Part shown: positions 25,552 through 58,427 of the stretch, one piece after another
Layout: each line of letters starts with the position of its first letter
Numbering within the stretch: position 1 is the first letter of the stretch
From: Magnetococcales bacterium HHB-1
GTDB taxonomy: Bacteria > Pseudomonadota > Magnetococcia > Magnetococcales > JBQGBW01
Assembly (NCBI GenBank): GCA_052043475.1
Contig: JBQGBW010000009.1
Span: 1,818-65,817 of the forward strand
DNA length: 64,000 bases
Direction of reading: 5' to 3'
Translations under genes and position numbers: made by a program
Notes under the pieces: generated by a model
The model's database searches: none
Told to the model about the DNA's origin: nothing
What the model saw: only the letters and a program-made list of their open reading frames with translations

Positions 25552-25617
25552 TGCTGTCATGGATAATACTTTTAAATAGTATAATTACTGCGTCATAAAG
25601 CAAAAATACAATGGATA

Positions 25618-26637
25618 ATGCGAGCGTCAACTCACAGCGGGTTCTCTGGGAGAAAAAACGTTTTGAGAAAACAGGAAAAAAGAACATGTTGGCATTGCCT
25701 GGTTGCTGATACCCTGAAAACGCTTTTGCAGCCAGTCGGCGTTGAGGTGCGCCCAGAGGTAAAGGTTATCGAATCTCCCAGGGCTGATATCCTGCTTATT
25801 CGTCGCAGAGGAAAACGGTGGACCGATGAACAGCGTTTGCTGTTAGCTGATGGCCTGCGAGATCTTGAAGCCAACCATATACTCGCAGAATTAAAGGTAA
25901 CTGAAAGCCTGAATGAAAGCGCGTTGCGGCAAACGCTGGCCTATGATCACTTTTTCCTGATCGGTGAAGAACTCCCCAGAAAGCAATTGCAGAGCGTGTT
26001 GATCAGTGCCAAGACGCCGCGGGGTGATATCCTGGAGCAGTTCGGCTTTGAACCTTTGGGGCCAGCGGGAGTCTATGCTTGCAAAAATTCTCCCTGGTGT
26101 GGGTCACTTCGTGTTATCCTGTTGAACAAGCTATCGAATGAACCACACAATGCGCCACTCAAAATGTTCGCAAGTCAGCGGGCAGAGCGAAAAAAAGCCT
26201 TTGAGACTATCAAGCGCTCGGGGTTAATGGAACGGTCAATAAAATTTGGACGTATTGTTGCTGGTCTATGGAGATTGTTGATGAAAGGATCTATGGAGAA
26301 TATTGAAGCTGACGGGATTACGACAGGTCATATTGCCGAGCTGGGCAAAGAGTGGTTTGAGGCGATGGTGGAATCGTCACCAGATGATGAACTGTTCTCA
26401 TTGCCAAGGCTTGAAAAACGTCTAAAACAGAGCGCCGCTAAAGGTAAAGCAGAAGGTAAAGCAGAAGGTAAAGCAGAAGGTCAAGCTGAACTTCTCCAAC
26501 GCCTTCTCCAGAAAAAATTCGGCAACGTCCCTGCTTGGGCTAATGAGAAGCTCAAAACAGCAGATTCTCAAAGTCTGGAGATTTTGGGGGACCGAATCCT
26601 GGACGCTTCTTCAATTGATGAAGTTTTCAAGCAATAG
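25618..26637 (+). CDS. PD-(D/E)XK nuclease-like (Rpn/YhgA-like putative transposase family) protein with C-terminal DUF4351-like module
   Basis: D...E.K pattern (PRADILLIRR ... HILAELK). The C-terminus has xEGx tandem repeats (KAEG x3), then LLQRLLQKKFGNVPAWANEKL...LEILGDRILDASSIDEVF, typical of DUF4351 tails. The assignment comes from motif recall only. Confidence 0.55.
   Translation: MRASTHSGFSGRKNVLRKQEKRTCWHCLVADTLKTLLQPVGVEVRPEVKVIESPRADILLIRRRGKRWTDEQRLLLADGLRDLEANHILAELKVTESLNESALRQTLAYDHFFLIGEELPRKQLQSVLISAKTPRGDILEQFGFEPLGPAGVYACKNSPWCGSLRVILLNKLSNEPHNAPLKMFASQRAERKKAFETIKRSGLMERSIKFGRIVAGLWRLLMKGSMENIEADGITTGHIAELGKEWFEAMVESSPDDELFSLPRLEKRLKQSAAKGKAEGKAEGKAEGQAELLQRLLQKKFGNVPAWANEKLKTADSQSLEILGDRILDASSIDEVFKQ
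26443..26490 (+). repeat. in-frame 12-nt tandem repeat (GGTAAAGCAGAA x3 + 1 degenerate), encodes GKAE
   Basis: Read directly from the sequence; it encodes the KAEGKAEGKAEG stretch in copy 1. Confidence 0.9.
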
Positions 26638-33551: not shown

Positions 33552-35276
33552 TTGACTTGGACTGTCACGATGGATCTGTTAAACCTCTATGAAAAAGCCA
33601 CATCTCAAGCACGTTCTTTGCTGAGAGGACGTGGGATTCTCTCAATTATTCTGGTCTCTTTTCTTCTTCTGATTCTCTATTTTATCCTGTCACTTACATC
33701 ACTTGCTTTTTCAGTATGGGACCGTTTTCAAGCAGGGCCAGGTTGGGTTGCGTTTATCTATTGGAGCGCGCTTATCGGATTTATGGGCTCTCTGGCCTTG
33801 ACGTGCTGGCGTGGTATTCGCCGTTTCTCCTCCGGTAAAAAACGCGATAAAGAAGCGACAGAGACGCCTGAAGTTCTTCCTCCCCCCCCAGATGAAGAGG
33901 AGGTTCAGCTTCGTATTGAGCGTAATATTGAGGCGGGCGCTTCTGTGGGGGCGGCGGAAGCGGAGTTGGAACAACTCTCTCAGCGCCGTGAAGCCGGAGA
34001 AGTGCATGTGGTTCTGTTTGGTGAAATCTCTGCGGGAAAGACGGCGCTTTTAAAGGTTCTTCTGCCTGAAGCGGAGGTAGAGAGCTCTCCTGTGGGGGGA
34101 ACCACCCGTAAACTGGAGCGAAGAACCTGGATTAGCCAGGCGGGCGATCGTCTGGTTCTGACCGATCTTCCTGGCTTTAATGAAGCGGGAAATCTCGATG
34201 AATCCCATGGAAAAGAGGGCAAGGCTTTAGCGTTTGTGGCACGGGAGGAGGCCGCGAGATCGCATGCGGTGGTCTACCTCTGTGATGGCGATCTTACCAG
34301 GGATCAGTTTGCTGAACTCGCCAGGCTTGTGCTGTTGAAAAAACCGATGGTGCTTGTGCTCAATAAGGTGGACCGTTTCTCAAAAGAGGAGCGCTTAAAG
34401 GTTGAAGATAAACTGCGTGAACGGGTGGCTGAACTGCGTGCTGAGATCCCGATTGAGGTGGTCTCCATCAGTAGCGGTGGTCAGCGTGAAGTGGTTCGTT
34501 TATTGCCTGATGGAGAAGAGCGCCATGAAGTGCGTCCGATTCCTCCTCAAATTGAACCCTTAACCCATGCCTTACAGCGCATCTTTGATCAGGATATGGC
34601 GCTTTTAGAGTCTCTGCGGGATAGTGCGGTCTTCACCTTGGCGGCAGAGCGATTGGATGAATCTTTGCGCCTAAGGCGGCGGGAGCAGGCGGACGCCATG
34701 ATCTCCAATCATGCACACAAGGCGGTTTTGGGCGCGATGGCAGCATTCTCTCCGGGAATGGATCTGATTGTCCAAGGTGTACTTGGTGTGGCGATGGTGC
34801 GCAAGCTCTGTGAGCTCTATGATGTTCCTGTAAAAGAGCTGGAGTTAAAACAGCTTCTTAAAAGAATTGATCTTAAGGCGATAAAATCGATCCCTTTTCT
34901 GCTTACGGTGGTTGGTAATGTCTTTAAAGCCTTTCCTGGCGTGGGTACGGTTGCCGGTGGTGTTCTGCATGCGGTCGCTTATGGCCTGATTTTTGAAAGC
35001 TTAGGTAAATCGGTGGTGCGCACCTTAGAGAGCCGTGGAAAATTGGCGGTCAATCCGACAATCCAACTATTTGAGGAGTGTCTTGGCGATGACCTGGAGA
35101 ATCGCTCCAGACGCTGGTTAAAGTTGGCCATCTCCATGGCAAGACGCAAAAAAGAGAGTGAACAGGAGATTATGCCTGGAGCAGAGAAAGATCAAAGTGG
35201 ATCTTCAATCCGGGCGACGGATAAAAACCGACCAAAACCTGTTGATTTTGTGCAACCAAAAGAAGACCTCCGGTGA
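33552..35276 (+). CDS. membrane GTPase with C-terminal DUF697-like domain
   Basis: Two N-terminal TM helices. G1 is GEISAGKTALL, G3 is DLPGFNE and G4 is NKVD. The C-terminal hydrophobic/amphipathic DUF697-like region reads AVLGAMAAFSPGMDLIVQG...FPGVGTVAGGVLHAVAYGLIFE. The first ATG is at 33570 and the TTG at 33552. Confidence 0.8.
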   Translation: MTWTVTMDLLNLYEKATSQARSLLRGRGILSIILVSFLLLILYFILSLTSLAFSVWDRFQAGPGWVAFIYWSALIGFMGSLALTCWRGIRRFSSGKKRDKEATETPEVLPPPPDEEEVQLRIERNIEAGASVGAAEAELEQLSQRREAGEVHVVLFGEISAGKTALLKVLLPEAEVESSPVGGTTRKLERRTWISQAGDRLVLTDLPGFNEAGNLDESHGKEGKALAFVAREEAARSHAVVYLCDGDLTRDQFAELARLVLLKKPMVLVLNKVDRFSKEERLKVEDKLRERVAELRAEIPIEVVSISSGGQREVVRLLPDGEERHEVRPIPPQIEPLTHALQRIFDQDMALLESLRDSAVFTLAAERLDESLRLRRREQADAMISNHAHKAVLGAMAAFSPGMDLIVQGVLGVAMVRKLCELYDVPVKELELKQLLKRIDLKAIKSIPFLLTVVGNVFKAFPGVGTVAGGVLHAVAYGLIFESLGKSVVRTLESRGKLAVNPTIQLFEECLGDDLENRSRRWLKLAISMARRKKESEQEIMPGAEKDQSGSSIRATDKNRPKPVDFVQPKEDLR

Positions 35277-35298: not shown

Positions 35299-37194
35299 AT
35301 GAGTATCTGGAAGCGGGTTACAGGATTGCGTTCTGATGAAGAGAAAAATGGCGCGAAAGGGGAGGAGAATAGATCTTCCGAAAAGGGGGCTGACGCGAGC
35401 GATGCGCGTTGGAAAAAATTGACGCAGGATGCCTCAGGCGCTTTTGGTAAGGGATTTAAATCTCTGGAGAATGGTCTGGAGAAGGGGTGGCGTGTGGTCA
35501 GTGATACGCTACACACCGAAAAAGATAAAGAATCCACATCGGTGACCACCAAACAGGCTTCTTCAAAACATCTTCCTCTGGATGCCACGGGAGCGGAATC
35601 CACACTGGCGGAGATTCGTAAAGCCTCCAAAGAGGAGAAATCCTCTCTGGCTTCATGGGATCTAACCGCCTGGGAGTCGCGCCTTGAAGATCAGATGAGC
35701 CATTTTCGCACCTTTTGGAAAGATCGTGAGGTGGATCAAAAGATCAAGGAGGTGAGCGAGCAGAGTGGAAAATATCTCCTCCAAACCGGGGCACGTCTGC
35801 ATCAGGTTAAAAATATTCTCACAGGCCGTGGAATGCACCTTCCTAAGACAGAGGAGCGTGTCGCCGTTGAACCTGTCGAGGAGCCCAGTACAGTACAGGG
35901 TTTAGGGCATCTGGATCTGGCGGAGCGAAGTCTGCGTGATCTTCTGGATAATGATAACGTTCCCGCGCAGGTTAAAGAAGCGCTCAAAGAGGAGTATCGC
36001 CAGGTTCGTGATCTGCTGGAAAAAATTGAACTGGGACAGATCCATATCGCCGCTTTTGGTCGCGTAAGTGTTGGAAAATCTGCGCTGCTCAACGCTTTAA
36101 TTGGTGAAGAACTGTTTGAGGTGAGTCCGCTGCATGGTGAAACCAAAGTGGTGCAGAAGGCGGCCTGGAAGGAGGCTAAAGCCTCTTCGGATACATCCCA
36201 TGGTGGTGTTTTTCTTATTGATACCCCCGGCATCAATGAGGTGGATGGCTTGGATCGTGAGTTGTTGGCGCGCGGGGTGGTGGATCGCAGTGATCTGGTG
36301 CTCTTTGTGGTGGATGGCGATATCACTGAAACCGAGCATCAGGCGTTAAAGAGTATTCTTGCCGATCACCACCGTCCGCTGATTCTGGTATTAAATAAGG
36401 CGGATCGCTACACCTCCGTAGAGAAGAGTCTGCTCTTAAAAACCCTTGTTGAGCGTACGGAGGAGATGGTGGCGCCTGGCTATGTGGTCTGTTGTGCCGC
36501 AAAGCCAGCGGAGAAGGTCTATATTCAGGTGGATGAGGAGGGCAATGAGACAGAAGTTTGCCGAACCCCTGAGCCCGACCTGATTGAGTTGAAGGAGTTG
36601 CTCTGGAATATCTTAGAGAGTGAGGGCAAGACCCTCTCGGCGGTGAATGCCAGTCTTTTTGCAGGTAAACTCTCCGATCAAGTCTCTGAAGGCATCACCC
36701 GTTACCATAAAGAGACCGCCGAGAAGGTGATCCGTACCTACTGCCTGGGAAAGGGCGTGGCGGTGGCGTTTAATCCGGTCCCCATAGCCGATGTACTCGC
36801 TGTTGCCGCCGATGCCGCAATGATTGTCAATATGGGCAATATCTATGGTATGCCTGTAAATGCTTCAGAGGCGGGCAGTTTAATGAAAACCATCATCGGC
36901 CAGATGATGCTGCTCATGGGCGCGGTCTGGGGGGTTCAACTGGCCTCTTCTGCCTTAAAAGGGGTGAGTCTTGGTCTTTCCACGGTGTTTACCGCAGGAA
37001 CGCAAGGTGCGGTGGCCTACTATGGTACTTATGTGGTTGGAAAGGCGGCTGAACGCTATTTTGCTCAGGGTAAATCCTGGGGTGAGGGCGGACCTAAGCA
37101 GGTGGTGCGTGAGATCTTGGACTCCTTGGATCGTGAATCCATTCTGGCTCAGGCGCGTGCGGATATTCTGGCTAAAATTAAAAAGGCAGACTGA
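35299..37194 (+). CDS. GTPase with charged N-terminal region and C-terminal DUF697-like domain
   Basis: G1 is GRVSVGKSALLNAL, G3 is DTPGINE and G4 is NKADR. The DUF697-like tail reads AVAFNPVPIADVLAVAADAAMIVNMGNIYG. It lies 22 nt after the preceding paralogous gene. Confidence 0.8.
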   Translation: MSIWKRVTGLRSDEEKNGAKGEENRSSEKGADASDARWKKLTQDASGAFGKGFKSLENGLEKGWRVVSDTLHTEKDKESTSVTTKQASSKHLPLDATGAESTLAEIRKASKEEKSSLASWDLTAWESRLEDQMSHFRTFWKDREVDQKIKEVSEQSGKYLLQTGARLHQVKNILTGRGMHLPKTEERVAVEPVEEPSTVQGLGHLDLAERSLRDLLDNDNVPAQVKEALKEEYRQVRDLLEKIELGQIHIAAFGRVSVGKSALLNALIGEELFEVSPLHGETKVVQKAAWKEAKASSDTSHGGVFLIDTPGINEVDGLDRELLARGVVDRSDLVLFVVDGDITETEHQALKSILADHHRPLILVLNKADRYTSVEKSLLLKTLVERTEEMVAPGYVVCCAAKPAEKVYIQVDEEGNETEVCRTPEPDLIELKELLWNILESEGKTLSAVNASLFAGKLSDQVSEGITRYHKETAEKVIRTYCLGKGVAVAFNPVPIADVLAVAADAAMIVNMGNIYGMPVNASEAGSLMKTIIGQMMLLMGAVWGVQLASSALKGVSLGLSTVFTAGTQGAVAYYGTYVVGKAAERYFAQGKSWGEGGPKQVVREILDSLDRESILAQARADILAKIKKAD

Positions 37195-39329: not shown

Positions 39330-41294
39330 TTAGAGCAGTGTTGCTTTAACACCAGCAGGAACACCGCGCCGGTTTGGATTAACCTCGAAAACCTGCTTTA
39401 GTGCGACGCCCATATGGGAGAAAATCTCGATCCATCCTTTCTCAACAGCTTTATTTTTAACAGGAACCTTTTCAAAATGGATCATAAGGCTACACAGCAT
39501 ACCGCCTGCAAATCCATCGAGAAAATCATCCAGATCTTCTGCTCTGATATGATCTAAAATGGTTTTTCCGATGAGAAAATGTTCTCGAAGATAAGCAAAG
39601 GTATTGGAAAGTGGAGCGAAACGGCAAAATTTTCGTCCTTCAACACTGATGCCTAAACGAATTTTTTGACTGTTGAGTTCTTTAAGGGTTTGAAAACTGC
39701 TTCCAGCGCAGTTGGCGCCCTCGTTCTCCATACGCTCTTTTAAAATTTCTAACAGGGCACGCCCTAAGACCATGGCGGTATCTTCAAGAACCACATGGCT
39801 GGAGCTTAATGCCAAGGCTTTGAAAGTGACTTGAAGAGAGAATCCTGCCTCTTTAGCAAGCGCCTCTAATAAAATAGCAAAGTTATCCACCTTAATGGAG
39901 TCTGCCACCTCAAATATAAAGTGGTTCTCCGTTGTTCTATTAAAGTCAACGGTTAGAGAGATCTCGCTTTCCGCTGTTTTTCTTAAGAGTTGGCAGTAAT
40001 CTGTTCTCTTCTCAGAGATAATGATGCTTCCCAGATCTTTTTTTGGGGGAGTGTTTTTTGTATCGATTGAAGGGGGGGAATCCGTTTGCTCTGGAGTAAA
40101 GTTTAATCCTGCCAATGCAATACCGATGGATCTGAAGATCCCTTCCCAGGTGTGGTGGGGATCTTCTGCACTACAGATGGTAATTTTAAAGTGGGCATTT
40201 AAGGCTTGGGCCAATCCTTGTAGAAGCGCCACTAAAGGTTGACCTGAGTGAAGCTGCTCACAGCGAAGGTTAAGAAACCACTTAAGATCGATTGCAGGCA
40301 CTTCTTTGAATGTGACGCCCGCCTTTTTAGTAGACATGTTAATGCTGACTTCTGCACTGCCATCATCAATCATGCCTAAGGTGGCGGAAAATTTTTTTTT
40401 ATGAGGAATTTTACGGAGTGTCGATCCGAGTTCTTTGCCGAGTTCCACCCAGTTATCATTGTTCCAGCTTAGATTGATGCCAGTGCCTAAACGCCAAGCG
40501 ATATGTTCAACCATATGGCTGACAAAGTCGTTTGGTGTATCGATCTTTTTATCAAGGACATTGCCAAAACGGAGTTGGGTTTGAAACGTATCGAAGTTTT
40601 TATAAGCCTGGTTTGTGTAGGGGCTTTTTGAGAGGAGATCATGCTTTTCACCGCCCATGGCCACAGCAATTGTATGGCATTTTGCACGTGATCCTGCTTC
40701 AATGCCGATGCTGGAATCCTCGATGACGACGCATCTTTTCTGTTTTACGCCGAGTTTTTTTGCTGCAAAAAGGTAGGTATCGGGGGCGGGTTTCTTTTTT
40801 AGGTTTTTGAGATCATTGCCAATAATTTTATCAAAGTAGTGATCGATTTTACTGCGTTCTAAAAGTTCGATGACGTCTGTCGTGGGATTATTGGATACCA
40901 CGGCCAGCTTTAACCCTTTTTTCTTTGCCGCCTGAAGAATGTCTTCAATACCAGGGTTGACATCAAAGGCTCTGGCTTGGCGTTGTGTTTCATACGCTTG
41001 CAGGATTATTTCAAGCTGATCATCATTAACGGATATCTTAAAATTCTTTTCAATATAGGCAGAGATTCTTTTCCAAAATTCTGGCGGATGGTAAGCAAAA
41101 ATGCTCTGAATGAATGCATCCGGTAGATGGATCTCTTCTCCCAGATGATTTTGCACCAGTTCATTGCAGACAACATAGTCAAATCCCAAGGAGTCGATGA
41201 GAACGCCATCCATATCCCAAAGAATGGCTTGGGCTTTTTTAGGGATAAGGATTCGATTCGCCAGGGTGATATATCTTTTTTTATCTGACTTCAT
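39330..41294 (-). CDS. atypical HisB-like fusion: HAD-IA phosphatase + two tandem IGPD-like modules
   Basis: HAD motifs are WDMDGVLIDS, VVSNNP, KKKPAPD and IEDSSIGIEAG. Module A has DTPNDFVSHMVEHIAW and EDPHHTWEGIFRSIGIAL. Module B has RKTAESEISLTVDF, SSSHVVLEDTAMVLGRAL and a terminal GVPAGVKATLL (compare E. coli LPSSKGVL). It is 654 aa versus ~355 aa for E. coli HisB. Confidence 0.72.
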   Translation of the reverse strand: MKSDKKRYITLANRILIPKKAQAILWDMDGVLIDSLGFDYVVCNELVQNHLGEEIHLPDAFIQSIFAYHPPEFWKRISAYIEKNFKISVNDDQLEIILQAYETQRQARAFDVNPGIEDILQAAKKKGLKLAVVSNNPTTDVIELLERSKIDHYFDKIIGNDLKNLKKKPAPDTYLFAAKKLGVKQKRCVVIEDSSIGIEAGSRAKCHTIAVAMGGEKHDLLSKSPYTNQAYKNFDTFQTQLRFGNVLDKKIDTPNDFVSHMVEHIAWRLGTGINLSWNNDNWVELGKELGSTLRKIPHKKKFSATLGMIDDGSAEVSINMSTKKAGVTFKEVPAIDLKWFLNLRCEQLHSGQPLVALLQGLAQALNAHFKITICSAEDPHHTWEGIFRSIGIALAGLNFTPEQTDSPPSIDTKNTPPKKDLGSIIISEKRTDYCQLLRKTAESEISLTVDFNRTTENHFIFEVADSIKVDNFAILLEALAKEAGFSLQVTFKALALSSSHVVLEDTAMVLGRALLEILKERMENEGANCAGSSFQTLKELNSQKIRLGISVEGRKFCRFAPLSNTFAYLREHFLIGKTILDHIRAEDLDDFLDGFAGGMLCSLMIHFEKVPVKNKAVEKGWIEIFSHMGVALKQVFEVNPNRRGVPAGVKATLL

Positions 41295-41419: not shown

Positions 41420-42721
41420 TTAATCGTCTCTTTTAATCAGCGCGTTGGCATGGGCTGGGAAGCCTTCATATTCGGCAAAGCGGGTGGTGCTCTCCCGAAG
41501 GCTGTCGAACCCTTCTCTGCTTAAATAGCCGATTGAGGTGCGTTTTAAGAAGTCAAAAATTGTGACGCAGGAGAAGGTTTTTGCGAATCCACCGGTGGGT
41601 AGAATGGCATTGACCCCTAAGGAGAAGTTGCCCATGGTGATTGGGGTATTGAGTCCTAAGAGGATTTCGCCAGCATTTTTAATCTGATTGAGAGCAAAGA
41701 AGGGCTCTTCGATTAACACCTCAAGATGTTCTGGGGCGAAGTCGTTGATAAAATCGATGGACGCCTCCAGACTTGAGGTGATCACAATGCCACCAAAAGT
41801 GGAGAAACCTGTGTTGCAGAATGTTTTTCTGGGTTCAGGCAGATCATCAATCAGTTTTGGCAGGAGCTTAGCCACTTTTTTCGCCAGCTTTTCAGAGTGG
41901 GTGACTAAAAGGGCGGTGGAGTCGGGGCCGTGTTCGGCTTCGATCATCAGATCTAAGGCGGCGATTTTTGCAGGCGTGCTCTCATCGCAGAAGATAATCG
42001 ACTCACTAGGACCAGCAGGTGTGCCCACATCAATGTGGGTGTAGAGCAGGCGTTTGGCTGCAGAGACGTAGCTGCTTCCAGGACCGATGGTTTTAACCAC
42101 TTTAGGAACGGTCTGGGTGCCGTAAGCCATGGCGGCGATCGCTTGTGCGCCACCGGTTTTATAAACTTCTTTGATACCGCAGAGTTGGGCTGCATAGAGC
42201 GTGGCATCCTCGACGCCACCATCGGCTTTAGGAGGGGTGCAGACGATAATTTTCTCAACACCAGCAATGGCGGCGGGCACGCCCAACATCAGCATGACCG
42301 AAGGAAAAGCGCCTTTTCCGCTGGGGACGTAGAGTCCGACCGAGTGAATTGGTGTGATCTTCTCACCTGCCATAACCCCTTTCTCGATCTCGATAAACCA
42401 GGTCTCTTCAGGGCGTTGGGCTTCGTGATATTTCTTGATATTTTTAAACGATCTTTCGATCATCTGCTTGAGGGGTTCGGAGAGGTTGGCTTCGGCCTGG
42501 GCAAACTCTTCTTCGGTGACTTTTAGTTGCTCAGGGCGCATATCTGCCTGATCAAATTTTTTATTAAATTCTAGCAATGCTGCGTCACCACGCTCTTGAA
42601 CCGCGGATATGATCGGCGCAACGGTATCGGTGAGTTGATCAATGCCGATTTCAGAGCGTTTCATTATTCTGGCGATCTCTTCTGGAGCCATCTCTGCCAG
42701 TCGGAATACATTTATTCCCAT
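41420..42721 (-). CDS. hisD: histidinol dehydrogenase
   Basis: 433 aa with family-typical blocks GLYVPSGKGAFPSVMLM, GGAQAIAAMAYGT, GPGSSYVSAAKR, PAGPSE, AEHGPDS and APEHLE. Confidence 0.95.
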   Translation of the reverse strand: MGINVFRLAEMAPEEIARIMKRSEIGIDQLTDTVAPIISAVQERGDAALLEFNKKFDQADMRPEQLKVTEEEFAQAEANLSEPLKQMIERSFKNIKKYHEAQRPEETWFIEIEKGVMAGEKITPIHSVGLYVPSGKGAFPSVMLMLGVPAAIAGVEKIIVCTPPKADGGVEDATLYAAQLCGIKEVYKTGGAQAIAAMAYGTQTVPKVVKTIGPGSSYVSAAKRLLYTHIDVGTPAGPSESIIFCDESTPAKIAALDLMIEAEHGPDSTALLVTHSEKLAKKVAKLLPKLIDDLPEPRKTFCNTGFSTFGGIVITSSLEASIDFINDFAPEHLEVLIEEPFFALNQIKNAGEILLGLNTPITMGNFSLGVNAILPTGGFAKTFSCVTIFDFLKRTSIGYLSREGFDSLRESTTRFAEYEGFPAHANALIKRDD

Positions 42722-43050
42722 GTCAAAACATACCTTATCATGAATGCCTGCTAATGTTCAGGCCCGTATTTAATTTCAAAGGATGATATCTAAAAAGGAT
42801 ATAATCCGGTTTGGCCTTCTGTTTTTCAGGGGCATACAGGGGCGCTTAGGCATGCTACTATGTTTTTTAATATTTTTTCAAGGAACTTCTTTTTTGGGCT
42901 CTTGGAGCTTGATTTTTCTTAAAAGTTATCCTTGTAATTGGGGGTGGCTCACAGATCATACTCTTTACTTGGCTAAAACTGGCCTGGTTTATGCTGTGAA
43001 AAGCGTGGCCACATAGAGAAAAATTTGCAACAGACCGAAAGGGGAGGAAG

Positions 43051-46000
43051 ATGCCCACCAAAAACAGAAGACTGTTTTTTTTATTCGTTTGTATGATGGT
43101 TTTATTCAGTTCTGCCCCAGAAAATACTTTTGCGAATAATAGATTATATACGATTCAGGTGCAAGCAACGCAGGAGGAGTCTGTTGTTCAAGAGACACTG
43201 GAAATGTTGCGCAAGTGGGGCTATAAGCCTTTTGTGCTCTCGATCAGGGATCATAGAGGTCGAACCTGGCAGACGGTTCATATTGCCAAGTATCGTACCT
43301 TTAAAAGTGCAACCAAACGGCTGAGAAAATATAAAAAGAAGACCGGTAAGGATGCGGTGGTTGTGCCGACAAAAGAGCATCTTTATCGGCGTTTTATTGC
43401 GCGGCGGAAAGCGTTTCTATCACGATTGAATAAAGAACAATTGGACGCAGCTAAGGCTACCGAAAAACGGACTGTACAACAAGTTGAAACAGAAAAAGAT
43501 GCTTCACTCCTTGAAGCGTCTTTGGCTTTAGAGCAAAACAAACCTGTTGAAATCTCTGTGGATATGGACGCTGCGAAGGTAGACAAAAAAGAAGTGACTT
43601 TGGCGGTAGAACAGAAAGTTGAAGCGGTTGAGGCGTCTGCTTTGGAATCTACTGAAGCGGTTGAGGCGTCTGCTTTGGAATCTGCTGAAGCGGTTGAGAC
43701 GCCTGCTTTGGAATCTGCTGAAGCGGTTGAGGCAGAGAAAAAGGTTGAAGCGGCCATTGCTGAGGCTGAGGCGGAAGCGAAAGTTGCAGAAGAGGCGAGG
43801 CTTGTGGCTGAGGCTCAAGCGGAAGAAGCCGCCGCTGAGTGGGTTGCTGAAGAACGTGCAGAAGCGTTGGGGCAGGCTTTGGCTGAACAGTCTGCACCTG
43901 CGGATGAAAGTGATGCGGCATCTGAGCCAAAAAAGACGCCTGAGACAATGGTTGTGAAGACGTTGCCTGTTCAACAGATGCATCCGGCGTCCTATCTATG
44001 GATTTTTCTCTCTCTGTTTCTACTTGGTGTGGTGGCTTTTCTCCTGTTAAAACTGCGTAAGATTCAACAGAACGACAAGCGGGCTCAACAGAAACGTGAA
44101 GATGAAAAACTGGCGAAAATAAAAGTTGGTGACCGTGTGCAGCGCTTTTATTTTCCTAAAGATATTCCCAAATCTCGTCTCTCTTCCTTCATTGGGCGTC
44201 GCAATCAATTGCTCAAATTGCGTGGTGCACTGACTGATTTTTCGACAGGCTCTTTTCCTAAACCGCAGGTGATCTATGGTATGGGGGGAGTTGGTAAAAC
44301 CGAGCTTGTTGTTGAATATGTTTACCGTCACTTTGAGGATTATCAGACCATCTGGTGGATTGATCGCCATATGCCTACAGCCATTGCTAAAAAAATGGGG
44401 TTAGAGCAGGAGAATCTATCTGCTGTTTGGGAGGATATCGGACTATGGTTTGCAACCAATGATCATTGGTTGATTATTCTTGATAACATGAACAGTCCTC
44501 AGGAGGCGCTCTCACATCTCCCTGAAGGGAGGGGGCATGTGATTATTACAACGCGCCATGCCAACTGGGGTGACCGTTTCAATGTGCAAAGGCTCAATCC
44601 TTGGTCCAGAGGTAGGGCCAGAGCATTTATCAGCCGTTATCATCCGGATATAGCTAAATCTTCGGTTAAAGCGCTTGCCGATGCTTTTGGTGGTTTCCCT
44701 TTGGCTTTAAGACAGGTGATGACCCACCTTACGCAGATGGATATCTCCATTGAGGCGTATCTTGAGCAGTATCATTCTGATCCTTTAAGGTTTCTTTCCT
44801 TGGGGCAACAGGAGTCGGCACGCTATCCGTGTTCGGTTATGGCAGCTTGGATCAACTCGATTGAGCAGATTGAAAACAGTGATCCTGTCTCTATGGGGAT
44901 TTTAAATCTGCTCGCTTTCCTTGGCTCTAAAAGGGTTCCTCAATCGTTGATTCTGGATAACCGTTCCGGACTCCCTTCACCACTGGATCATTCCGATGCT
45001 TTAACGGATCTTTTTACTTTCCATGATAAAGTAGTGCAACCTCTGGATCGCAATGCACTGATTACCGCTGAGCGCGATACTTTAAATCAACACCGTCTGT
45101 TGCAGACCGTATTGCGTGAGCGTTTAAAACCAGAGGAGCGTAAACGCTGGATTCATGTCGCTTTGACTCTGGTTGGTGCGTCCTTCCATCATAAAAAGCG
45201 CAGCAGTCATCTGAAAGAGGCGCAGGAGGAGTCTAACCGTGCGCTTCTTCCCCATGCCATTGCGGTGACAGAGCATGCTGAAAAAGCGGGGATCGATTTT
45301 GAACGGCTTGCCCGTCTCCTTGATGATATTGTTACCTCTCTTGTGAATAGAGGCGCGTTTGAAAAGGCAGAGGGGTTCTGTCATCGTGCAGTGACGATTA
45401 CAAAAGAGTTCTTGGGAGGGCACGCTCACGCCAACTACGGCATGCGTTTGAATACTTTAGGGCTTATCTTTAAAGAGCAGGAACGCTTTGGGGAGAGTCT
45501 TCATCTATTCCGTAAGGCCGCACAGATTGATATGCAGCGGTTTGGTCCAGATTATTCCTATCTGGCGGTTTATGATCTCAATATGGGAACGGTCTTCTAT
45601 CTGGAGAAAAACTGGAAAGAGGCGGAGAAGTACTATAAGAGGTCTTATGAGGTGATCAAGAAAAACGGTGCAACCATGACTCGACTGGCCACCACCTGTT
45701 TGATTAATCTTGGCTTTTTGCGTTTGAAGGCGGAGGGGGAAGTGGCGGCAAACGTCTATTTTGAAGAGGCGCTGCGTAGAGAGAAAATTGATCAATTGGA
45801 TGAGCAACCGGTAGCAAAAGATATTCAGGCTCTGCCCGAGGTGATTAAAAAACTGGAAGCGTTGGATGAAGCGAAAAAGATGCGGATCGCATCCAGTCGA
45901 GATATGCTTCAGAGTGCGGATGCGCTTCATGAGACCCTTATGTCATCATCCAAGTTGCCACCTCAATCGGCGACATCAAAACCTCTGTCGTGGTCATCGG

Positions 46001-46437
46001 TCCCTAAATCTTCAGCGCCAAAACCTTTTACGCCTAAAAAGCCTGGTAAGCCCAATAAAGAGCAGATTAAGCTGTTCACCTATAGCGCGAAAGAGCAGTT
46101 GCTGGTGGCGGCGCCTGTTTTACAGTCTGTGGAGAAAATGGGGGCTTCATCACCGTTGGAGAGCTTTGATAAGCTCTACCGGAGTATGCGAGCCATCAAG
46201 GGGGGGGCTAATCTGATTGGCTTAAAGAATATCTCTCGTCTAAGTAGGATACTGGAACAGCTTCTGGAAAGAATGCGCAATGATGGTCTCTCTGGTGTGG
46301 ATGCTTCCGTTATTGAGAGACTGCTTTCTGGCATTACGATCTTACAAGCGATGGTTGAAGATGCCGCCAATAGCGATGATGTGAATGTCAATCCGTTTAT
46401 TGGTACGATCCAATCGACATTGGATTCCCTATCATGA
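43051..46437 (+). CDS. bitopic SPOR - TM - NB-ARC (STAND NTPase) - TPR - Hpt-like protein
   Basis: AGGGGAGGAAG SD upstream. The N-terminus is a signal-like peptide followed by a SPOR-like fold (YTIQVQAT..WGYKPFVL..WQTVHIAKY..GKDAVVV). Then come an acidic repeat linker and a TM helix at aa 313-335. NB-ARC motifs are Walker A GMGGVGKT, Walker B LIILDN, VIITTRH, GGFPLAL and QHRLL. TPR repeats follow, then a C-terminal LYRSMRAIKGGANLIG...LEQLLERMRNDG that resembles CheA P1. Confidence 0.85.
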   Translation: MPTKNRRLFFLFVCMMVLFSSAPENTFANNRLYTIQVQATQEESVVQETLEMLRKWGYKPFVLSIRDHRGRTWQTVHIAKYRTFKSATKRLRKYKKKTGKDAVVVPTKEHLYRRFIARRKAFLSRLNKEQLDAAKATEKRTVQQVETEKDASLLEASLALEQNKPVEISVDMDAAKVDKKEVTLAVEQKVEAVEASALESTEAVEASALESAEAVETPALESAEAVEAEKKVEAAIAEAEAEAKVAEEARLVAEAQAEEAAAEWVAEERAEALGQALAEQSAPADESDAASEPKKTPETMVVKTLPVQQMHPASYLWIFLSLFLLGVVAFLLLKLRKIQQNDKRAQQKREDEKLAKIKVGDRVQRFYFPKDIPKSRLSSFIGRRNQLLKLRGALTDFSTGSFPKPQVIYGMGGVGKTELVVEYVYRHFEDYQTIWWIDRHMPTAIAKKMGLEQENLSAVWEDIGLWFATNDHWLIILDNMNSPQEALSHLPEGRGHVIITTRHANWGDRFNVQRLNPWSRGRARAFISRYHPDIAKSSVKALADAFGGFPLALRQVMTHLTQMDISIEAYLEQYHSDPLRFLSLGQQESARYPCSVMAAWINSIEQIENSDPVSMGILNLLAFLGSKRVPQSLILDNRSGLPSPLDHSDALTDLFTFHDKVVQPLDRNALITAERDTLNQHRLLQTVLRERLKPEERKRWIHVALTLVGASFHHKKRSSHLKEAQEESNRALLPHAIAVTEHAEKAGIDFERLARLLDDIVTSLVNRGAFEKAEGFCHRAVTITKEFLGGHAHANYGMRLNTLGLIFKEQERFGESLHLFRKAAQIDMQRFGPDYSYLAVYDLNMGTVFYLEKNWKEAEKYYKRSYEVIKKNGATMTRLATTCLINLGFLRLKAEGEVAANVYFEEALRREKIDQLDEQPVAKDIQALPEVIKKLEALDEAKKMRIASSRDMLQSADALHETLMSSSKLPPQSATSKPLSWSSVPKSSAPKPFTPKKPGKPNKEQIKLFTYSAKEQLLVAAPVLQSVEKMGASSPLESFDKLYRSMRAIKGGANLIGLKNISRLSRILEQLLERMRNDGLSGVDASVIERLLSGITILQAMVEDAANSDDVNVNPFIGTIQSTLDSLS
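43621..43737 (+). repeat. in-frame 33-nt tandem repeat (~3.5 copies) encoding EAVEASALES(T/A)
   Basis: Units of GAAGCGGTTGAGGCGTCTGCTTTGGAATCT(A/G)CT start at 43621, 43654 and 43687, with a partial unit at 43720. Confidence 0.9.
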
Positions 46438-46535: not shown

Positions 46536-47903
46536 CTATTTAGTCAAATCTGTTTTGATCCAGAGAGGGAAGCGTGTGATAAATCCCCCTTTTTTCTTGC
46601 GGGTGATTTTCCGCCAGGGTTTTCGGATGGCTGCAAACAGAGCGCTTGTGAGTTTGAGAGGGAGAAGGTTAAGAAATAAACGCATAAAGCGTGTGGTTCC
46701 TAATGTAAAAATGAGCGCGATTAATGTTGTTGTCAGACGGATCTTGAACGGTGGTATCACCTGATAGCCGTAAGAAGGCACGCCTTTTTTTAGCCATCGA
46801 CGCAGGGATAAACGGGCCCATACGGCCACTTTTTTATTAAATAGCCCGTGAGAGTGCATCTCTAGAGCGTCATCGCGACTTGTTTTCTGGAGATGAATAA
46901 CGCCCTGCTTTGTCGCTTGAGTGAGCGCTTGCTCACCTGCTTCTGTGCGTGTGATCACAAGGGAGAACCCTTCACTGCGCTCTTCATAGCGAGGCGCCCA
47001 GGCATCGCCCACAGAGATATCTGCCAGTTCATTGCTTAGATCAACGCACGCCAAGGAGCGCTGCATGGCAAAGAACAGGGTCATATAGTTGGCATAAAAT
47101 TTAGCCATCTCGAAGGTGCGGTTATCGTGAAGCGTGATGCGTAATTTTCCTGGCCAGGCGCCAGCGCGGTATTCCACTTTGCGTATGAGGGATGTGTCGT
47201 GTACGCCCTGTTTATGGAGGTAGTTGACCACAGAAGAGGTGTGCTGAACAACGCCGCAGTAGGAGCCGATAATCAGGCTGATCGAGCGGACCAGAGGATC
47301 GCCCTCTTGCTGCATCATGCGAATGGAGTGCACCTGATCGGGGAGAGCCACAATGGCCAGAGGGCCTTTCATTGTGGCGGCTTGACGTAAAATGGTATTG
47401 ACAGGCGCAATGGAGTAACGACTCTGTTGGGTTGGTGTGAGTTGTGAGGGGTTGGTGATGACGACAGGGATGGGGCGTAAGGGTTCTCCTGGAATATCGG
47501 TTAAGCAGATTGCGCCTTCGATTGCTCCTGTACGCAGAAGGTGCTCAAGGAGTGCAGTGATAATGCCGCCGCTGGCGGCTTGACTGCGTGTTTTTGCCTC
47601 TGTTGCATAGCCCACATGGATTTCACGGGCATGGCCAAGCAGATAATCGGGCGGGGCGGATTTAAATAGCCGTTGATTCATGGCGGGAAAATCGATTCCT
47701 GCGCCCGGGCAGAAGCGGTAACAGAGATCTGAGCAGGTCTGACAAACAGATAATGGGGTGGTCATCATGGGAAGACAGAGATCCAGAGGATCGCTGAATG
47801 TGATGGCGTGTTCAGGGCAGATGGCGACACAGGTGCCGCAACGGGTACAGAGATCGATATCAATGATCTTCTGTGATAAGGTCGTAAAACTCATGGGAAT
47901 CAC
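46536..47903 (-). CDS. FrhB-family (coenzyme F420 hydrogenase/dehydrogenase beta subunit-like) protein with N-terminal 2x[4Fe-4S] ferredoxin
   Basis: Cluster motifs are CTRCGTCVAICP and CQTCSDLCYRFCPG. The FrhB-like core reads AASGGIITALLEHLL...IGSYCGVV. The 5' end overlaps the upstream ORF by 35-44 nt. Confidence 0.78.
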   Translation of the reverse strand: MIPMSFTTLSQKIIDIDLCTRCGTCVAICPEHAITFSDPLDLCLPMMTTPLSVCQTCSDLCYRFCPGAGIDFPAMNQRLFKSAPPDYLLGHAREIHVGYATEAKTRSQAASGGIITALLEHLLRTGAIEGAICLTDIPGEPLRPIPVVITNPSQLTPTQQSRYSIAPVNTILRQAATMKGPLAIVALPDQVHSIRMMQQEGDPLVRSISLIIGSYCGVVQHTSSVVNYLHKQGVHDTSLIRKVEYRAGAWPGKLRITLHDNRTFEMAKFYANYMTLFFAMQRSLACVDLSNELADISVGDAWAPRYEERSEGFSLVITRTEAGEQALTQATKQGVIHLQKTSRDDALEMHSHGLFNKKVAVWARLSLRRWLKKGVPSYGYQVIPPFKIRLTTTLIALIFTLGTTRFMRLFLNLLPLKLTSALFAAIRKPWRKITRKKKGGFITRFPLWIKTDLTK

Positions 47904-49605
47904 CGCTGGAAGAGGAGAGGGGGGGCGATATCTCAGGCGCGTTCCAGCCTGAGGGGGTCAGGGTTCGGATGATGCGCAGCGTCCCTGGTTTGTGAATTTG
48001 GAGTATGGGGTGCAATCGTGAAGGGGAGGTGATCTCACCTGGATAAAAAAAGCCACATGAAGCAAAAGAGAAGGTGAGTTCATTGCCATCGGCATAGCGT
48101 AAACGTAAATCCCCACGATAAAAAGTGATGGTGTCTTCGATAATTAGTTGATTCTCTTTGACTCTTAATTTCCGCTGAAGTGAGGCTTCTGTTTTTCCTT
48201 TGGCCACAGCACGCTGTCGAACCCGATCTAAGAGCCATCGTCTTAGGGGTTTGGGGAGCAATAGATTGGTGGCACGAAAAATAATAAGATTCCAAGGCGT
48301 GGCAATAATGGGGCGAACACGGGAGAAGTCACAGTGGGCGACGCCCTGAGCGGATTGATGTTCCGCTTTCTCCGAGGCCATATCGAGTACTTGAGCGCTG
48401 AGAACATGCTTATCTGATGTGTGAAGATAGATCCCTGCATCCACAAAAAAGTTAGTTTGATCATGAAATGTACAGCGTAATACACCGCCTTTGCGCAGGT
48501 TGGCGACAAGGTGCAGTGTCTCTGTGGAGAGCGACCATAATCCTGATGCGGGATAAAAAACGTCTTGTTGGGGAGGAGAGAGCGCTGGTGTAGAGCGTTT
48601 GGGACTGATCAGGGCCGCCTGGAGATAAAACCCGCCAAGGTAGGCTGCATAACGGTCATCTAGGCGTGGAATGACATGGCGGTTGGGAAAACGTTGTAGT
48701 CCAGAGAGCAGGCGGTTACTTATGGTGAGGGCTTTTTCATGATTACGGGCCAGACTCTCTAAGCCATAGGGGATAAAATATTCCGTATTTCGGCTACCGA
48801 TGACACCGCCTGTCGAGCCATCCGAAAAGAGGAAGGGCTCCAGAAAATTGAGCAGTTTTAAAGCGCTTTGAAACGCTTTTTGATGGCCACTTTTATCGCT
48901 ATAACGCACCAGATAGTCAAAGGTAAGGCTGCTGTAACCGATATCGGCACCGCCATATTCGGGAAACCACCCTTCGCTATGTTGGTGTTTTAACAGCGAA
49001 TCGATAACCTCTTCGCTGAGTTTCTTAAACTGTTGATCTTTGGTGAGCATGAAGGTGTTATAAATTGCTGTTGCTGCACCAGCGACCTGGTTATAAGCGA
49101 AGCTCTCTTGTTGCTGGTGGAGCCAGATACTGGCTTTACAAGCGGTATCGGTAACCTTCTTGCGGGTTGTACTGTTGAGTTGATCTTCTAACATTAACAG
49201 CGCTTCTGTGGCGCAGAATGTGGAGAATGCGGTGGCTGCATAGGAATCATGTCCTTGATAAACTTCATCAAAGGCGCCGTGGGGGCGTTGCAGCGTTGTC
49301 CAGAAGATTAATACGGCATCAATCCAGCGCAAGAGGACAGGGGAACCGGCATAGGGATTCCATGTTTTTTTTAGACGATAGGCAGAGGCGAGGATTAAAA
49401 CAAGTTCCTGAAGCTGGCTGTTGGAGATATCTTCAATGCGGTAGTGCCAATGGTTGCGACAGCAGCTTCCATAGGTGGGAGCGTGTGGTCGTCGGTCGAT
49501 CTGGCTCAGTAGAGAGGGGAGTCTTTTGATGACAGGTTCCCCTAAAATACGGCCAGGATCAAAGTTGGGTTGGGAAGGCTCTGGGGAGGACTGGCTGTTT
49601 GACAT
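47860..49605 (-). CDS. hypothetical protein (possibly alpha/alpha-toroid + beta-sandwich, heparinase II/III-like)
   Basis: 581-aa ORF embedded in the co-oriented glycan locus. The fold guess rests only on composition and pattern (WFPEYGGADIGYSS), with no firm motif. Confidence 0.55.
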   Translation of the reverse strand: MSNSQSSPEPSQPNFDPGRILGEPVIKRLPSLLSQIDRRPHAPTYGSCCRNHWHYRIEDISNSQLQELVLILASAYRLKKTWNPYAGSPVLLRWIDAVLIFWTTLQRPHGAFDEVYQGHDSYAATAFSTFCATEALLMLEDQLNSTTRKKVTDTACKASIWLHQQQESFAYNQVAGAATAIYNTFMLTKDQQFKKLSEEVIDSLLKHQHSEGWFPEYGGADIGYSSLTFDYLVRYSDKSGHQKAFQSALKLLNFLEPFLFSDGSTGGVIGSRNTEYFIPYGLESLARNHEKALTISNRLLSGLQRFPNRHVIPRLDDRYAAYLGGFYLQAALISPKRSTPALSPPQQDVFYPASGLWSLSTETLHLVANLRKGGVLRCTFHDQTNFFVDAGIYLHTSDKHVLSAQVLDMASEKAEHQSAQGVAHCDFSRVRPIIATPWNLIIFRATNLLLPKPLRRWLLDRVRQRAVAKGKTEASLQRKLRVKENQLIIEDTITFYRGDLRLRYADGNELTFSFASCGFFYPGEITSPSRLHPILQIHKPGTLRIIRTLTPSGWNAPEISPPLSSSSGDSHEFYDLITEDH

Positions 49606-57210: not shown

Positions 57211-58290
57211 TCATTCAAAGTCAGGAATGGCGATACCGACCATGGTTTGCCACTGCCCGTTGTGGTCTTGGAATGCCCTGCCAGGGCATCTTGTATTGTA
57301 CTCTTCGACATGCCGTACGACTTTTTTTCTGTAACGTGAATAGAGGTTGCGCCTTGTGTTGGTATTTTTTCTGAATTGTTCTACTTGGTTGTAGAAGTTC
57401 TCCTTCTCTGCATTAAACTCTTTTAACTGACGTTTCCAGTGGCGGTAGCTGCTTTTTGAAGAAAAGTTGGTTTTTTCTGATTTTTTAGAGAGTTCCAGAT
57501 CGGACTTCTCTACGCTCTCTTGCAGGCGTTCCACATTCTGGAGATCCTGTTTCTGATAACGAACGAGTCGTTTGATGGCGTTAACATGTGTTGCAAAATT
57601 TCTATAGAGCATGATGCACGCTTGTGAGGTGTCGTTGTTATTCACAGTGCGTACGTTGGACTGGCGTTTTGAATTTGCATTTTGGGTAATAATTAAACTT
57701 TTCTTAGGAATATCAATTTTCCAACTTCCCAGGGCTTCGAGAATTGGTGTTCCTAAAAGAGGTGTTGTCCCTTTTTTGGACATGACAGAGACATGAACAT
57801 TTTTCAGTGTGATCGGCCCGATCTGGAGTGTTTTGAGCCGATAGATCGCCTCTTTTATTTTTGACCCATCGGCAATGGTGAATGTGGCCATGCGGATAAA
57901 ATCTTTTTGAGAGATTTTTCCCTTTTTAACCAGATGTTCAAAGACATCTTTAGGAATGCTGACGCCGTTTGCACCGGTATCGATCAAAAAATAGAGGCTT
58001 AAAGTTTCATTGAGGATCGTGGCGATCCAGTACTGTTTTTTGGGTAAGCCTTTGGGGTGGAGGGGGAGATGGATTGTTTTGTTTACGGGCTCTTTTTTTG
58101 CTTGGTGTTTTTTGGGGCAGGGGGTTGAACTGATATAGCTCTTTCCCTGTTCATCCCAGCACTGGATGATGGTGATTCCTTTGCTTAAGGCGGGCGATGG
58201 CAAGATAAAAGAGAGGAGAAGAGCGAGTAGATGTGGGTAGGTTATTGGGAAAAATTTGAGATAGGGGGGAGAGACTGTTTTTTTTGACAT
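57211..58290 (-). CDS. secreted retropepsin-like (clan AA) aspartic protease family protein with DUF4124-like N-region and coiled-coil C-extension
   Basis: Start at ATG 58290 gives the signal peptide MSKKTVSPPYLKFFPITYPHLLALLLSFILPSPALS. A DUF4124-like block (CWDEQGKSYISSTPCP) follows. The catalytic-type motif is FLIDTGANGVSIP. The last ~170 aa are a charged tail. Confidence 0.7.
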   Translation of the reverse strand: MSKKTVSPPYLKFFPITYPHLLALLLSFILPSPALSKGITIIQCWDEQGKSYISSTPCPKKHQAKKEPVNKTIHLPLHPKGLPKKQYWIATILNETLSLYFLIDTGANGVSIPKDVFEHLVKKGKISQKDFIRMATFTIADGSKIKEAIYRLKTLQIGPITLKNVHVSVMSKKGTTPLLGTPILEALGSWKIDIPKKSLIITQNANSKRQSNVRTVNNNDTSQACIMLYRNFATHVNAIKRLVRYQKQDLQNVERLQESVEKSDLELSKKSEKTNFSSKSSYRHWKRQLKEFNAEKENFYNQVEQFRKNTNTRRNLYSRYRKKVVRHVEEYNTRCPGRAFQDHNGQWQTMVGIAIPDFE

Positions 58291-58427
58291 TTGTATTCTA
58301 TATATTTGTATGTTATAGACTCTATAAGTATATACTCTCTCTGGTATAATAATCTCTTTCTGATTTTGTGTAAAGAATTTTTTTGATACGTCGTGGCGTG
58401 CACAAATTCCTATTGTAAAAGTCACAA

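Follow-up and report, generated by a model that had tools for sequence, protein, structure and literature searches.

What might a protein do that joins a wall-binding domain to a nucleotide-driven switch across the inner membrane? The question is raised by one gene, at positions 43051 to 46437 on the + strand of a 64,000-nucleotide (nt) stretch of contig JBQGBW010000009.1 from Magnetococcales bacterium HHB-1 (the window; all positions are counted within it, and all features of the gene lie on the + strand). SPOR domains are seen as septal-targeting modules of division proteins, and STAND/NLR-type switches as sensors within the cytoplasm whose effector is an enzyme or a pore-former. The gene encodes, in this order, a predicted signal peptide, a SPOR domain, an acidic spacer, a transmembrane (TM) helix, a STAND NTPase, a DUF7779 domain, TPR repeats, a tether and a CheA-P1-type Hpt-like domain. 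All of these parts are known; what is new is their combination, of SPOR with STAND and of STAND with a CheA-P1-type domain, neither of which was found in our literature searches. We tentatively read the product as a peptidoglycan-anchored, nucleotide-switched scaffold that would dock or sequester a chemotaxis-type partner at the septal or polar wall.

Reading frame, topology and the SPOR head

The coding sequence, 43051..46437, is one unbroken open reading frame (ORF) of 1128 codons plus a stop codon, with no internal stops. A Shine-Dalgarno sequence, GGGGAGGA, was found at 43041-43048, 2-3 nt upstream of the ATG, in the 329-bp intergenic region (42722..43050) that the gene has in common with the divergent hisD. 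A scan for promoter and terminator consensus sequences that included this region gave promoter-like matches no commoner than in shuffled sequence. One orthologue was detected, MGN7613616.1 of the uncultivated magnetotactic coccus Magnetococcales bacterium HHB-1, which we took as independent. It is 48-49% identical over 85% of the query and collinear with it from the signal peptide to its own truncated C-terminus, having the same order of signal peptide, SPOR, TM helix, NTPase, TPRs, second linker and first tail helix, where its sequence ends at the edge of an 11.3-kb contig. Given this collinearity, the gene is not a chance ORF, and the part from the signal peptide through the TPRs is not an assembly chimera. 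The sequence-only reading that had drawn attention to the gene described one ORF of 1128 amino acids (aa) with a signal-like N-terminus, a SPOR-type fold, an acidic Ala/Glu linker containing tandem repeats, a single TM helix at aa 313-335, NB-ARC motifs, TPR repeats and a CheA-P1-like tail, and had allowed that it might be two genes split by a sequencing error. The intact frame, the domain searches given below and the shared order in MGN7613616.1 bear out the former and speak against the latter.

A Sec-type signal peptide is predicted for aa 1-28 (43051..43134) from charge and hydrophobicity, with an n-region MPTKNRR of charge +3, a 14-aa h-region and a c-region T-F-A followed by N; the equivalent positions in MGN7613616.1 are S-L-A, then N. 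At 14 residues the hydrophobic core is too short for a TM helix. Behind it, aa 29-107 (43135..43371) form a predicted periplasmic SPOR domain. The match to PF05036 exceeded the gathering score of 21 both in the whole protein (24.4 bits) and in an N-terminal fragment (28.4 bits), covering aa 31-106 and model positions 3-76 of 76. The AlphaFold2 model has the order beta-alpha-beta-beta-alpha-beta, with strands at aa 32-39, 61-66, 72-81 and 103-107 and helices at aa 43-55 and 84-98, at a predicted local distance difference test score (pLDDT) of only 47-68. SPOR domains share <20% identity with one another (PMC6895207). When a two-sequence SPOR profile was compared by hhalign with four E. coli SPOR domains (FtsN, DamX, DedD and RlpA, taken from the annotated K-12 genome), the alignment was collinear over 73 columns and marginal (E 4e-4, probability 34%). 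It set Q36 on the invariant SPOR Gln of strand beta-1 (FtsN Q251, RlpA Q270), and the residue at Q36 +3 is Ala, the same as in RlpA. This Gln is the sole highly conserved SPOR residue and contacts glycan directly in RlpA-glycan structures (PMC6895207). Searches of the SPOR region against the PDB, as a single sequence and as the two-sequence profile, gave no significant match, and a word-indexed homology search with the SPOR region alone returned no matches.

The SPOR domain is followed by an acidic, Ala/Glu-rich spacer (aa 108-312; 43372..43986), presumed periplasmic, with a net charge of -27, 24% Ala and 20% Glu, which was modelled as long helices with low pLDDT. Within it lies a 33-bp tandem repeat in 3.5 copies (43620..43733; TRF score 207, 95% matches) encoding the 11-aa unit EAVEASALES(A/T). 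The single TM helix, aa 313-335 (43987..44055), has a Kyte-Doolittle peak of 2.64 and a pLDDT of about 78; the only 19-aa hydrophobic window above 1.6 falls at aa 310-338. Net charge is -2 in the 30 aa before the helix and +6 in the 30 aa after it, and the whole juxtamembrane segment, aa 336-377 (44056..44181), carries +8. By the positive-inside rule this basic stretch places the C-terminal 790 residues in the cytoplasm. We infer a bitopic inner-membrane protein with its N-terminus in the periplasm, after Sec export and signal-peptide cleavage, and its C-terminus in the cytoplasm, in agreement with the earlier expectation of a periplasmic SPOR domain and a cytoplasmic NTPase.

FtsN, DamX, DedD and RlpA resemble this protein in having a SPOR domain with the invariant Gln, which a single TM helix and an extended low-complexity spacer hold at a distance from the inner membrane. 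Relative to FtsN, DamX and DedD, which are N-in with a C-terminal SPOR domain and only short cytoplasmic tails, the arrangement is inverted, with an N-terminal SPOR domain behind a signal peptide and a large cytoplasmic C-terminal part. To our knowledge, no SPOR protein with an NTPase is known.

Comparison with MGN7613616.1 showed that identity is highest in the SPOR domain (67%), followed by the winged helix (65%), the TM helix (61%), the NTPase (58%) and the TPR region (53%). The spacer is 19% identical over aa 131-312 and 52% identical over aa 108-130, beside the SPOR domain. That SPOR is the best conserved module, at 67% vs 19% in the linker, indicates selection on wall binding. On this comparison each folded module, SPOR foremost, appears to be under purifying selection, with the spacer left to drift and to grow through its repeats.

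The STAND core and the CheA-P1-type tail

The cytoplasmic core begins with a STAND NTPase, comprising the nucleotide-binding domain and the helical ARC1 (aa 378-600; 44182..44850), identified by motifs, NF040586, AlphaFold2 and Foldseek. Its motifs are Walker A GMGGVGKT (aa 410-417, nt 44278-44301), Walker B LIILDN (aa 474-479, nt 44470-44487), VIITTRH (aa 497-503) with sensor-1 R502, and the GxP motif GGFPLAL (aa 547-553); QHRLL at aa 680-684 contains an MHD-like winged-helix His, H681. In an alignment with nine relatives, G410-K416, D478, R502, P550 and H681 were invariant. Since all of the family-invariant NTPase residues are kept, the domain is likely an active nucleotide switch rather than an inactive STAND. 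Earlier described as a complete NB-ARC motif set, these motifs are indeed all present, whereas PF00931 (NB-ARC) itself is not significant: a fragment scored 14.1 bits over the P-loop only, against a gathering score of 23.5, and the whole-protein scan gave no match. The Walker A coordinate, given before as nt 44281, was off by one codon. Because PF00931 falls below its gathering score, NB-ARC membership is transitive, by way of the relatives and the fold.

The evidence for that membership came from three sides. NF040586 scored 231.1 bits over aa 375-822, and most of the closest relatives pass PF00931. The structural check proposed with the sequence-only reading gave a matching fold: AlphaFold2 modelled the NTPase at pLDDT 76-87 and the whole core at 76-94, and Foldseek matched the core model to 6mfv_A (PH0952; E 9e-13, probability 1.0) and to CED-4, Apaf-1, ZAR1, Sr35 and NRC (E ~1e-7 to 1e-8, probability 1.0). 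The core is thus a member of the NB-ARC/AP-ATPase clade by its relatives, its NF040586 score and its Foldseek matches. It has the same motif set as Apaf-1, CED-4, plant NLRs and archaeal PH0952, with a matching predicted NTPase-helical-winged-helix fold. Unlike these proteins, it is predicted to be membrane-anchored with an extracytoplasmic domain, and it has no CARD, coiled-coil or TIR effector.

The winged-helix DUF7779 domain (aa 601-700; 44851..45150), which includes H681, matched PF25000 with 25.8 bits in the whole protein and 27.0 bits in a fragment of aa 334-750, just reaching the gathering score of 27. The TPR region that follows (aa 701-915; 45151..45795) contains about 4-5 repeats of the kinesin light chain (KLC) type. 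TPR_12 (51 bits), TPR_10, TPR_1 and TPR_2 were each above threshold at aa 760-868, nine or ten helices were modelled at pLDDT 85-94, and Foldseek matched KLC TPR structures.

An exhaustive HMMER search of 1.84 billion representative proteins gave 33,834 core relatives (2,640 of them at E<=1e-30); matches outside aa ~350-960 were limited to the protein itself and MGN7613616.1, in keeping with the earlier remark that no characterised protein was known to join SPOR and STAND. No other full-length orthologue was present among the 150 best matches of the representative library. A local phmmer search with the SPOR, linker-TM and tail segments against 162 retrieved proteins found SPOR or the tail in none of the others. 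No further orthologue emerged when genome contigs were scanned twice with protein patterns and once with an exact 40-mer of DNA, or when a metagenome collection was scanned once; these scans returned only two distant core relatives (L001 and L002).

The relatives of the core point to a particular family background. Among the 48 closest, DUF7779 is present in all 48, PF00931 is passed by 39 and an N-terminal TIR_2 domain is found in 20; other close relatives bear PNP-type nucleosidase N-termini. The N-termini of the nearest relatives match PADLOC effector models (ThsB-like TIR, SAVED-TIR, bSEFIR and PN-superfamily effector), and in about 12 of 148 relatives the N-terminus has one or two TM helices where others have an enzymatic effector. 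Descent from these TM-anchored relatives finds no support, as they rank 19th to 146th by core score. With the TIR/PNP-NB-ARC-DUF7779-TPR proteins, NF040586 members included, homology extends over aa ~370-910 at 25-33% identity, with E down to 1e-79. Shared features are the pre-P-loop FxGR, Walker A, an hhhhDN Walker B, the sensor-1 Arg, GxP, a winged helix with a conserved His and KLC-type TPR_10/12 repeats. Unlike those proteins, this one has a signal peptide-SPOR-spacer-TM unit at the effector position, a much shorter TPR array and an extra P1-like domain; SPOR or this tail occurs in none of its 148 best relatives. Judged from these comparisons, the family that gave rise to the core consists mainly of NLR-like proteins of the conflict type; here a predicted wall-binding, membrane-spanning module has taken over the effector position and a P1-like domain has been added. 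Assignment as the TPR protein of an FxSxx-COOH system (NF040586) was ruled out, since 231.1 bits is below the cut-off of 300 bits and no FxSxx precursor or maturase genes are nearby.

The TPR region is followed by two helices and a disordered, Pro/Ser/Lys-rich tether (aa 916-1004; 45796..46062; pLDDT about 27-40), and then by a CheA-P1-type, Hpt-like helical bundle (aa 1005-1128; 46063..46434), assigned from PDB phmmer matches, CheA models and alignments. The CheA-P1-like character noticed earlier was supported by a phmmer search against all PDB sequences, in which the tail matched T. maritima CheA P1 (2ld6_A) at E 6.5e-8 over 119 residues. The search also matched five further CheA P1 structures, at E values that include 4.8e-6, 2e-4 and 6e-4; among the matches are the P1 domains of R. 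sphaeroides CheA3 (3kyi), Salmonella CheA and E. coli CheA, and no Hpt class other than CheA P1 was matched in this search. NCBIfam CheA models match the tail at 1e-5 and 3e-3. PF01627 (Hpt) scored 23.0 bits on the fragment and 17.4 bits in the whole protein, against a gathering score of 24.6. A word-indexed homology search with the tail alone (aa 990-1128) gave no matches, and the single-sequence AlphaFold2 model has five helices at pLDDT 57, for which Foldseek returned generic helical bundles only (E>0.1).

The phospho-accepting His of CheA P1 has been lost from this tail. The segment FRAAH48SIKGGA of E. coli CheA (K-12 record) aligns with YRSMR1047AIKGGA, and Arg1047 likewise aligns with His45 of T. 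maritima P1 (in the numbering used here) and with the His of the CheA encoded in the window, which was also aligned. No His occurs anywhere in aa 961-1128. The Arg1047 codon is CGA (46189-46191), two substitutions from any His codon (CAY), which rules out a single base-calling error as the source of the change. A run of eight G (46198-46205) lies in the IKGG codons; such homopolymers are frameshift-prone for some sequencing chemistries, and in this gene the frame runs through without a break and yields the canonical IKGGA. The tail keeps the R(H-3), I(H+2), K(H+3) and G(H+4) of CheA P1 and the equivalent of Glu70. In comparison with CheA P1 it has significant sequence similarity over ~119 residues and a five-helix pattern predicted at low pLDDT, without His48 and without P2-P5, on a STAND-TPR protein. 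With His48 replaced by Arg and no His elsewhere, the tail cannot carry phosphate on His, and by this alignment it would retain only a non-phosphotransfer role, as docking module or decoy. That the residues around the lost His are conserved suggests that the tail continues to interact with some recogniser of P1. It is too dissimilar to the P1 of the neighbouring cheA (about 19-22% identity, BLASTP E 0.003) to be a recent duplicate of it.

Candidate functions

The reading that we favour, and hold with some reserve, is that of a wall-anchored, nucleotide-gated scaffold. The SPOR head would bind glycan strands denuded by amidases and so hold the protein at the peptidoglycan of the septum or new pole, and the STAND module would be an ADP/ATP-driven oligomerisation switch. 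The His-less P1 could be a docking or pseudosubstrate module for a normal recogniser of CheA P1, such as a CheY-like receiver or the CheA kinase core, so that the protein might position or sequester a chemosensory-type partner and would not be a phosphorelay component. Its chromosomal position with housekeeping genes on its flanks, away from any defence island, and the lack of a PADLOC match were counted in favour of this scaffold.

By analogy, its logic would be comparable to that of the FimV (or HubP)-FimL-PilG polar hub, built as one polypeptide of unrelated parts. That hub likewise brings together a periplasmic peptidoglycan-binding domain, one TM helix, TPR motifs and acidic repeats, and a CheY-like regulator joins it by way of an adaptor; the FimL domain is a His-less relative of Hpt. 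The protein described here is unrelated to the hub in sequence and differs from it in that SPOR takes the place of LysM as wall-binding domain, the acidic repeats are periplasmic and not cytoplasmic, a STAND NTPase is inserted and everything is on one chain. Pfam and NCBIfam searches of the protein gave no match to LysM or FimV-type domains, the FimV C-terminal motif included.

Several observations weigh against the scaffold. The architecture is present in only two known genomes and, with no orthologue beside hisD in the other Magnetococcales representatives fetched and no further full-length one among the 150 best library matches, this distribution is what one would sooner expect of an accessory gene than of a core factor in cell biology. 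The TIR and nucleosidase effectors of the nearest core relatives are typical of conflict systems. The tail is complete in one sequence only, that of MGN7613616.1 ending after the first tail helix, and was not confidently modelled, with uninformative Foldseek results. No partner is encoded beside the gene, the che operon being 18 kb off with a CheA P1 that is ~20% identical to the tail, and the inferred topology relies on a simple hydrophobicity window and the positive-inside rule. We also know of no polar or septal landmark protein that uses a STAND NTPase. The case is limited to two uncultivated magnetotactic-coccus-like genomes and one complete tail.

A bolder form of the scaffold, which we regard as rather unlikely, is a trans-envelope NLR that reads the cell's own wall. 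The SPOR heads would be clustered by multivalent denuded glycans, present at the septum or new pole or produced when amidases or endolysins damage the wall; by induced proximity across the single TM helix the NB-ARC modules would oligomerise, and the resulting P1 array would capture CheA cores or CheY-like regulators. If true, this would be the first STAND/NLR-type switch gated from outside by peptidoglycan, with chemosensory wiring through a pseudosubstrate and not an enzyme. More generally, if the parts work together, an NLR-like oligomerisation switch could be positioned, and possibly gated, by peptidoglycan structure, which would extend both fields, and a His-less CheA-P1 domain would show reuse of P1 as a docking or pseudosubstrate module outside chemotaxis kinases.

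The alternative that we take most seriously, while doubting it, is an NLR-like protein anchored in the membrane and serving in conflict or defence. The core would sense an invader ligand, or wall damage by way of SPOR, and oligomerise, the TM helix and periplasmic module would perturb the membrane or envelope, and the His-less P1 would serve as an additional sensor or as an "integrated decoy". The TIR_2 and PNP-type nucleosidase domains of the closest relatives, their matches to PADLOC effector models, the relatives with TM helices in place of an enzyme, the sporadic distribution and the status of the gene as a lone gene, usual for Avs-type and NLR-like defence genes, all fit such a protein. 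A further precedent is given by the iSTAND ternary conflict systems, in which TM helices are combined with the peptidoglycan-associating domains PEGA, OmpA, PASTA and Sel1 (Kaur et al., 2020; PMC7159879). Like the protein described here, these join a STAND-family module to a TM helix and a wall-binding domain and are predicted to act at the membrane or wall, whereas their STAND is inactive and part of a multi-gene vWA-MoxR system, and here the motifs are intact, the gene is alone and the domain is SPOR. The earlier remark that no characterised protein joins SPOR and STAND is qualified to this extent: for TM-anchored peptidoglycan-binding STAND-related proteins in general there is this partial and bioinformatic precedent (PMC7159879). 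The sequence-only reading had also offered membrane-anchored NLR-like defence as an alternative, and the effectors of the core relatives speak for it. On the other hand, no PADLOC-DB 2.0 family (Avs, bNACHT and others) was matched at E<=1, the NB-ARC-TPR core of the relatives is itself no PADLOC system, and no defence island is present, with no defence, mobile-element or restriction genes nearby. The TM-anchored relatives are not the nearest kin, the TPR array is much shorter than in the relatives, and a single TM helix with a folded peptidoglycan-binding head is no obvious pore-forming effector. The best-conserved part, moreover, is the SPOR domain, and the SPOR proteins known so far all act in division or morphogenesis (PMC6895207).

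The other explanations fare less well. A lineage-specific product of domain shuffling, whose modules do not cooperate, for instance a merely tethered STAND-TPR protein with a relict P1, would account for there being two known members, for the lost catalytic residue of P1 and for the repetitive, fast-evolving linker. We consider it improbable: the folded modules are about 50-67% conserved between orthologues whose linkers share only 19% identity, the NTPase motifs are intact and the residues flanking the lost His are kept as in CheA, which together argue for purifying selection on each part. Still further down is the principal proposal of the sequence-only reading, an envelope or division-state sensor whose working Hpt domain would pass its signal to a His-Asp phosphorelay. 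The tail is, by sequence, homologous to CheA P1 and the window does contain a complete che operon, but with Arg1047 in place of the phospho-His, a codon two changes from His, no His in aa 961-1128, PF01627 under its gathering threshold and neither a kinase nor a receiver domain in the protein, the idea of an output that talks to a phosphorelay is hardly tenable. Least credible is a fusion of two or three genes by an assembly or annotation error. The contig is probably metagenome-assembled and the G8 homopolymer falls within the tail; against this, MGN7613616.1 has the same order from the signal peptide into the first tail helix, the frame across G8 encodes the canonical P1 motif and there are no internal stops.

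Genomic context and side observations in the window

The gene is monocistronic and lies between a his operon and an exopolysaccharide (EPS)-type operon. Upstream and divergent are hisD (41420-42721, -), hisC and a gene fusing HAD and imidazoleglycerol-phosphate dehydratase (IGPD) domains. Downstream, at a distance of about 100 bp, a convergent operon of EPS/glycolipid type encodes an FrhB-like protein, a 581-aa protein of no assigned family, a B12-binding radical SAM enzyme, an AsnB-like amidotransferase and glycosyltransferases of the PMT_2 and GT2 types. We found no FxSxx-partner genes near the gene. A survey of orthologues and conserved neighbours, proposed along with the sequence-only reading, yielded MGN7613616.1 as the one orthologue and no conserved neighbourhood: none of 80 hisD loci fetched, other Magnetococcales representatives included, has an orthologue beside hisD. 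The hisD genes of these loci are 48-69% identical and come from a mixture of Desulfobacterales, Thiomargarita-like bacteria and Magnetococcales, with best values of 67-69% in all three groups alike.

A che operon (MCP, CheR, triple-CheW, CheY, CheA and CheB) occupies 15.8-25.5 kb. It is complete and 18 kb away, as first reported, and is not linked to the gene. Its 465-aa protein at 19144-20541 (+) has three CheW domains. The 989-aa CheA (21051-24020, +) has ~590 residues between its Hpt (aa 8-100) and HATPase (aa 694-833) domains in which there is no Pfam match at the threshold used. Directly after cheB, at 25618-26637 (+), is a DUF4351 protein, which we take to be of the Rpn/YhgA-like recombination-nuclease type and which is the sole possibly mobile-element-related gene seen in the window.

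Other features of the neighbouring operons were also recorded. The HAD-IGPD protein of the his operon (39330-41294, -; 654 aa) joins an N-terminal HAD-IA domain, beta-phosphoglucomutase or phosphoglycolate-phosphatase-like, to IGPD, apparently with two IGPD-like stretches (aa ~248-395 and ~435-637), unlike the usual HisB fusion of histidinol-phosphatase and IGPD. In the convergent operon, the 581-aa ORF (47860-49605, -) has no Pfam or NCBIfam match and shares 44 nt with the FrhB/FdhB-like gene downstream of it, and the B12-binding radical SAM enzyme is HpnJ-like. A 406-aa retropepsin-like aspartyl protease (gag-asp_proteas / Asp_protease_2) is encoded at 57211-58431 (-), immediately downstream of and overlapping the gene of a TolC-like outer-membrane efflux protein.

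The window further contains metH, signalling genes, an ABC transporter and two adjacent paralogues, at 33552-35276 (+) and 35299-37194 (+), that combine a GTPase domain (MMR_HSR1 / dynamin-like) with DUF697 and are related to slr1306. GC skew on the + strand is weakly negative over 1-24 kb and strongly and persistently positive over 26-64 kb, and the cumulative skew is lowest near 24 kb. Gene orientation does not by itself account for this, as the genes to the right of that point are mostly on the - strand, and the change at ~24000-26000 could mark a replication-related switch or a rearrangement boundary.

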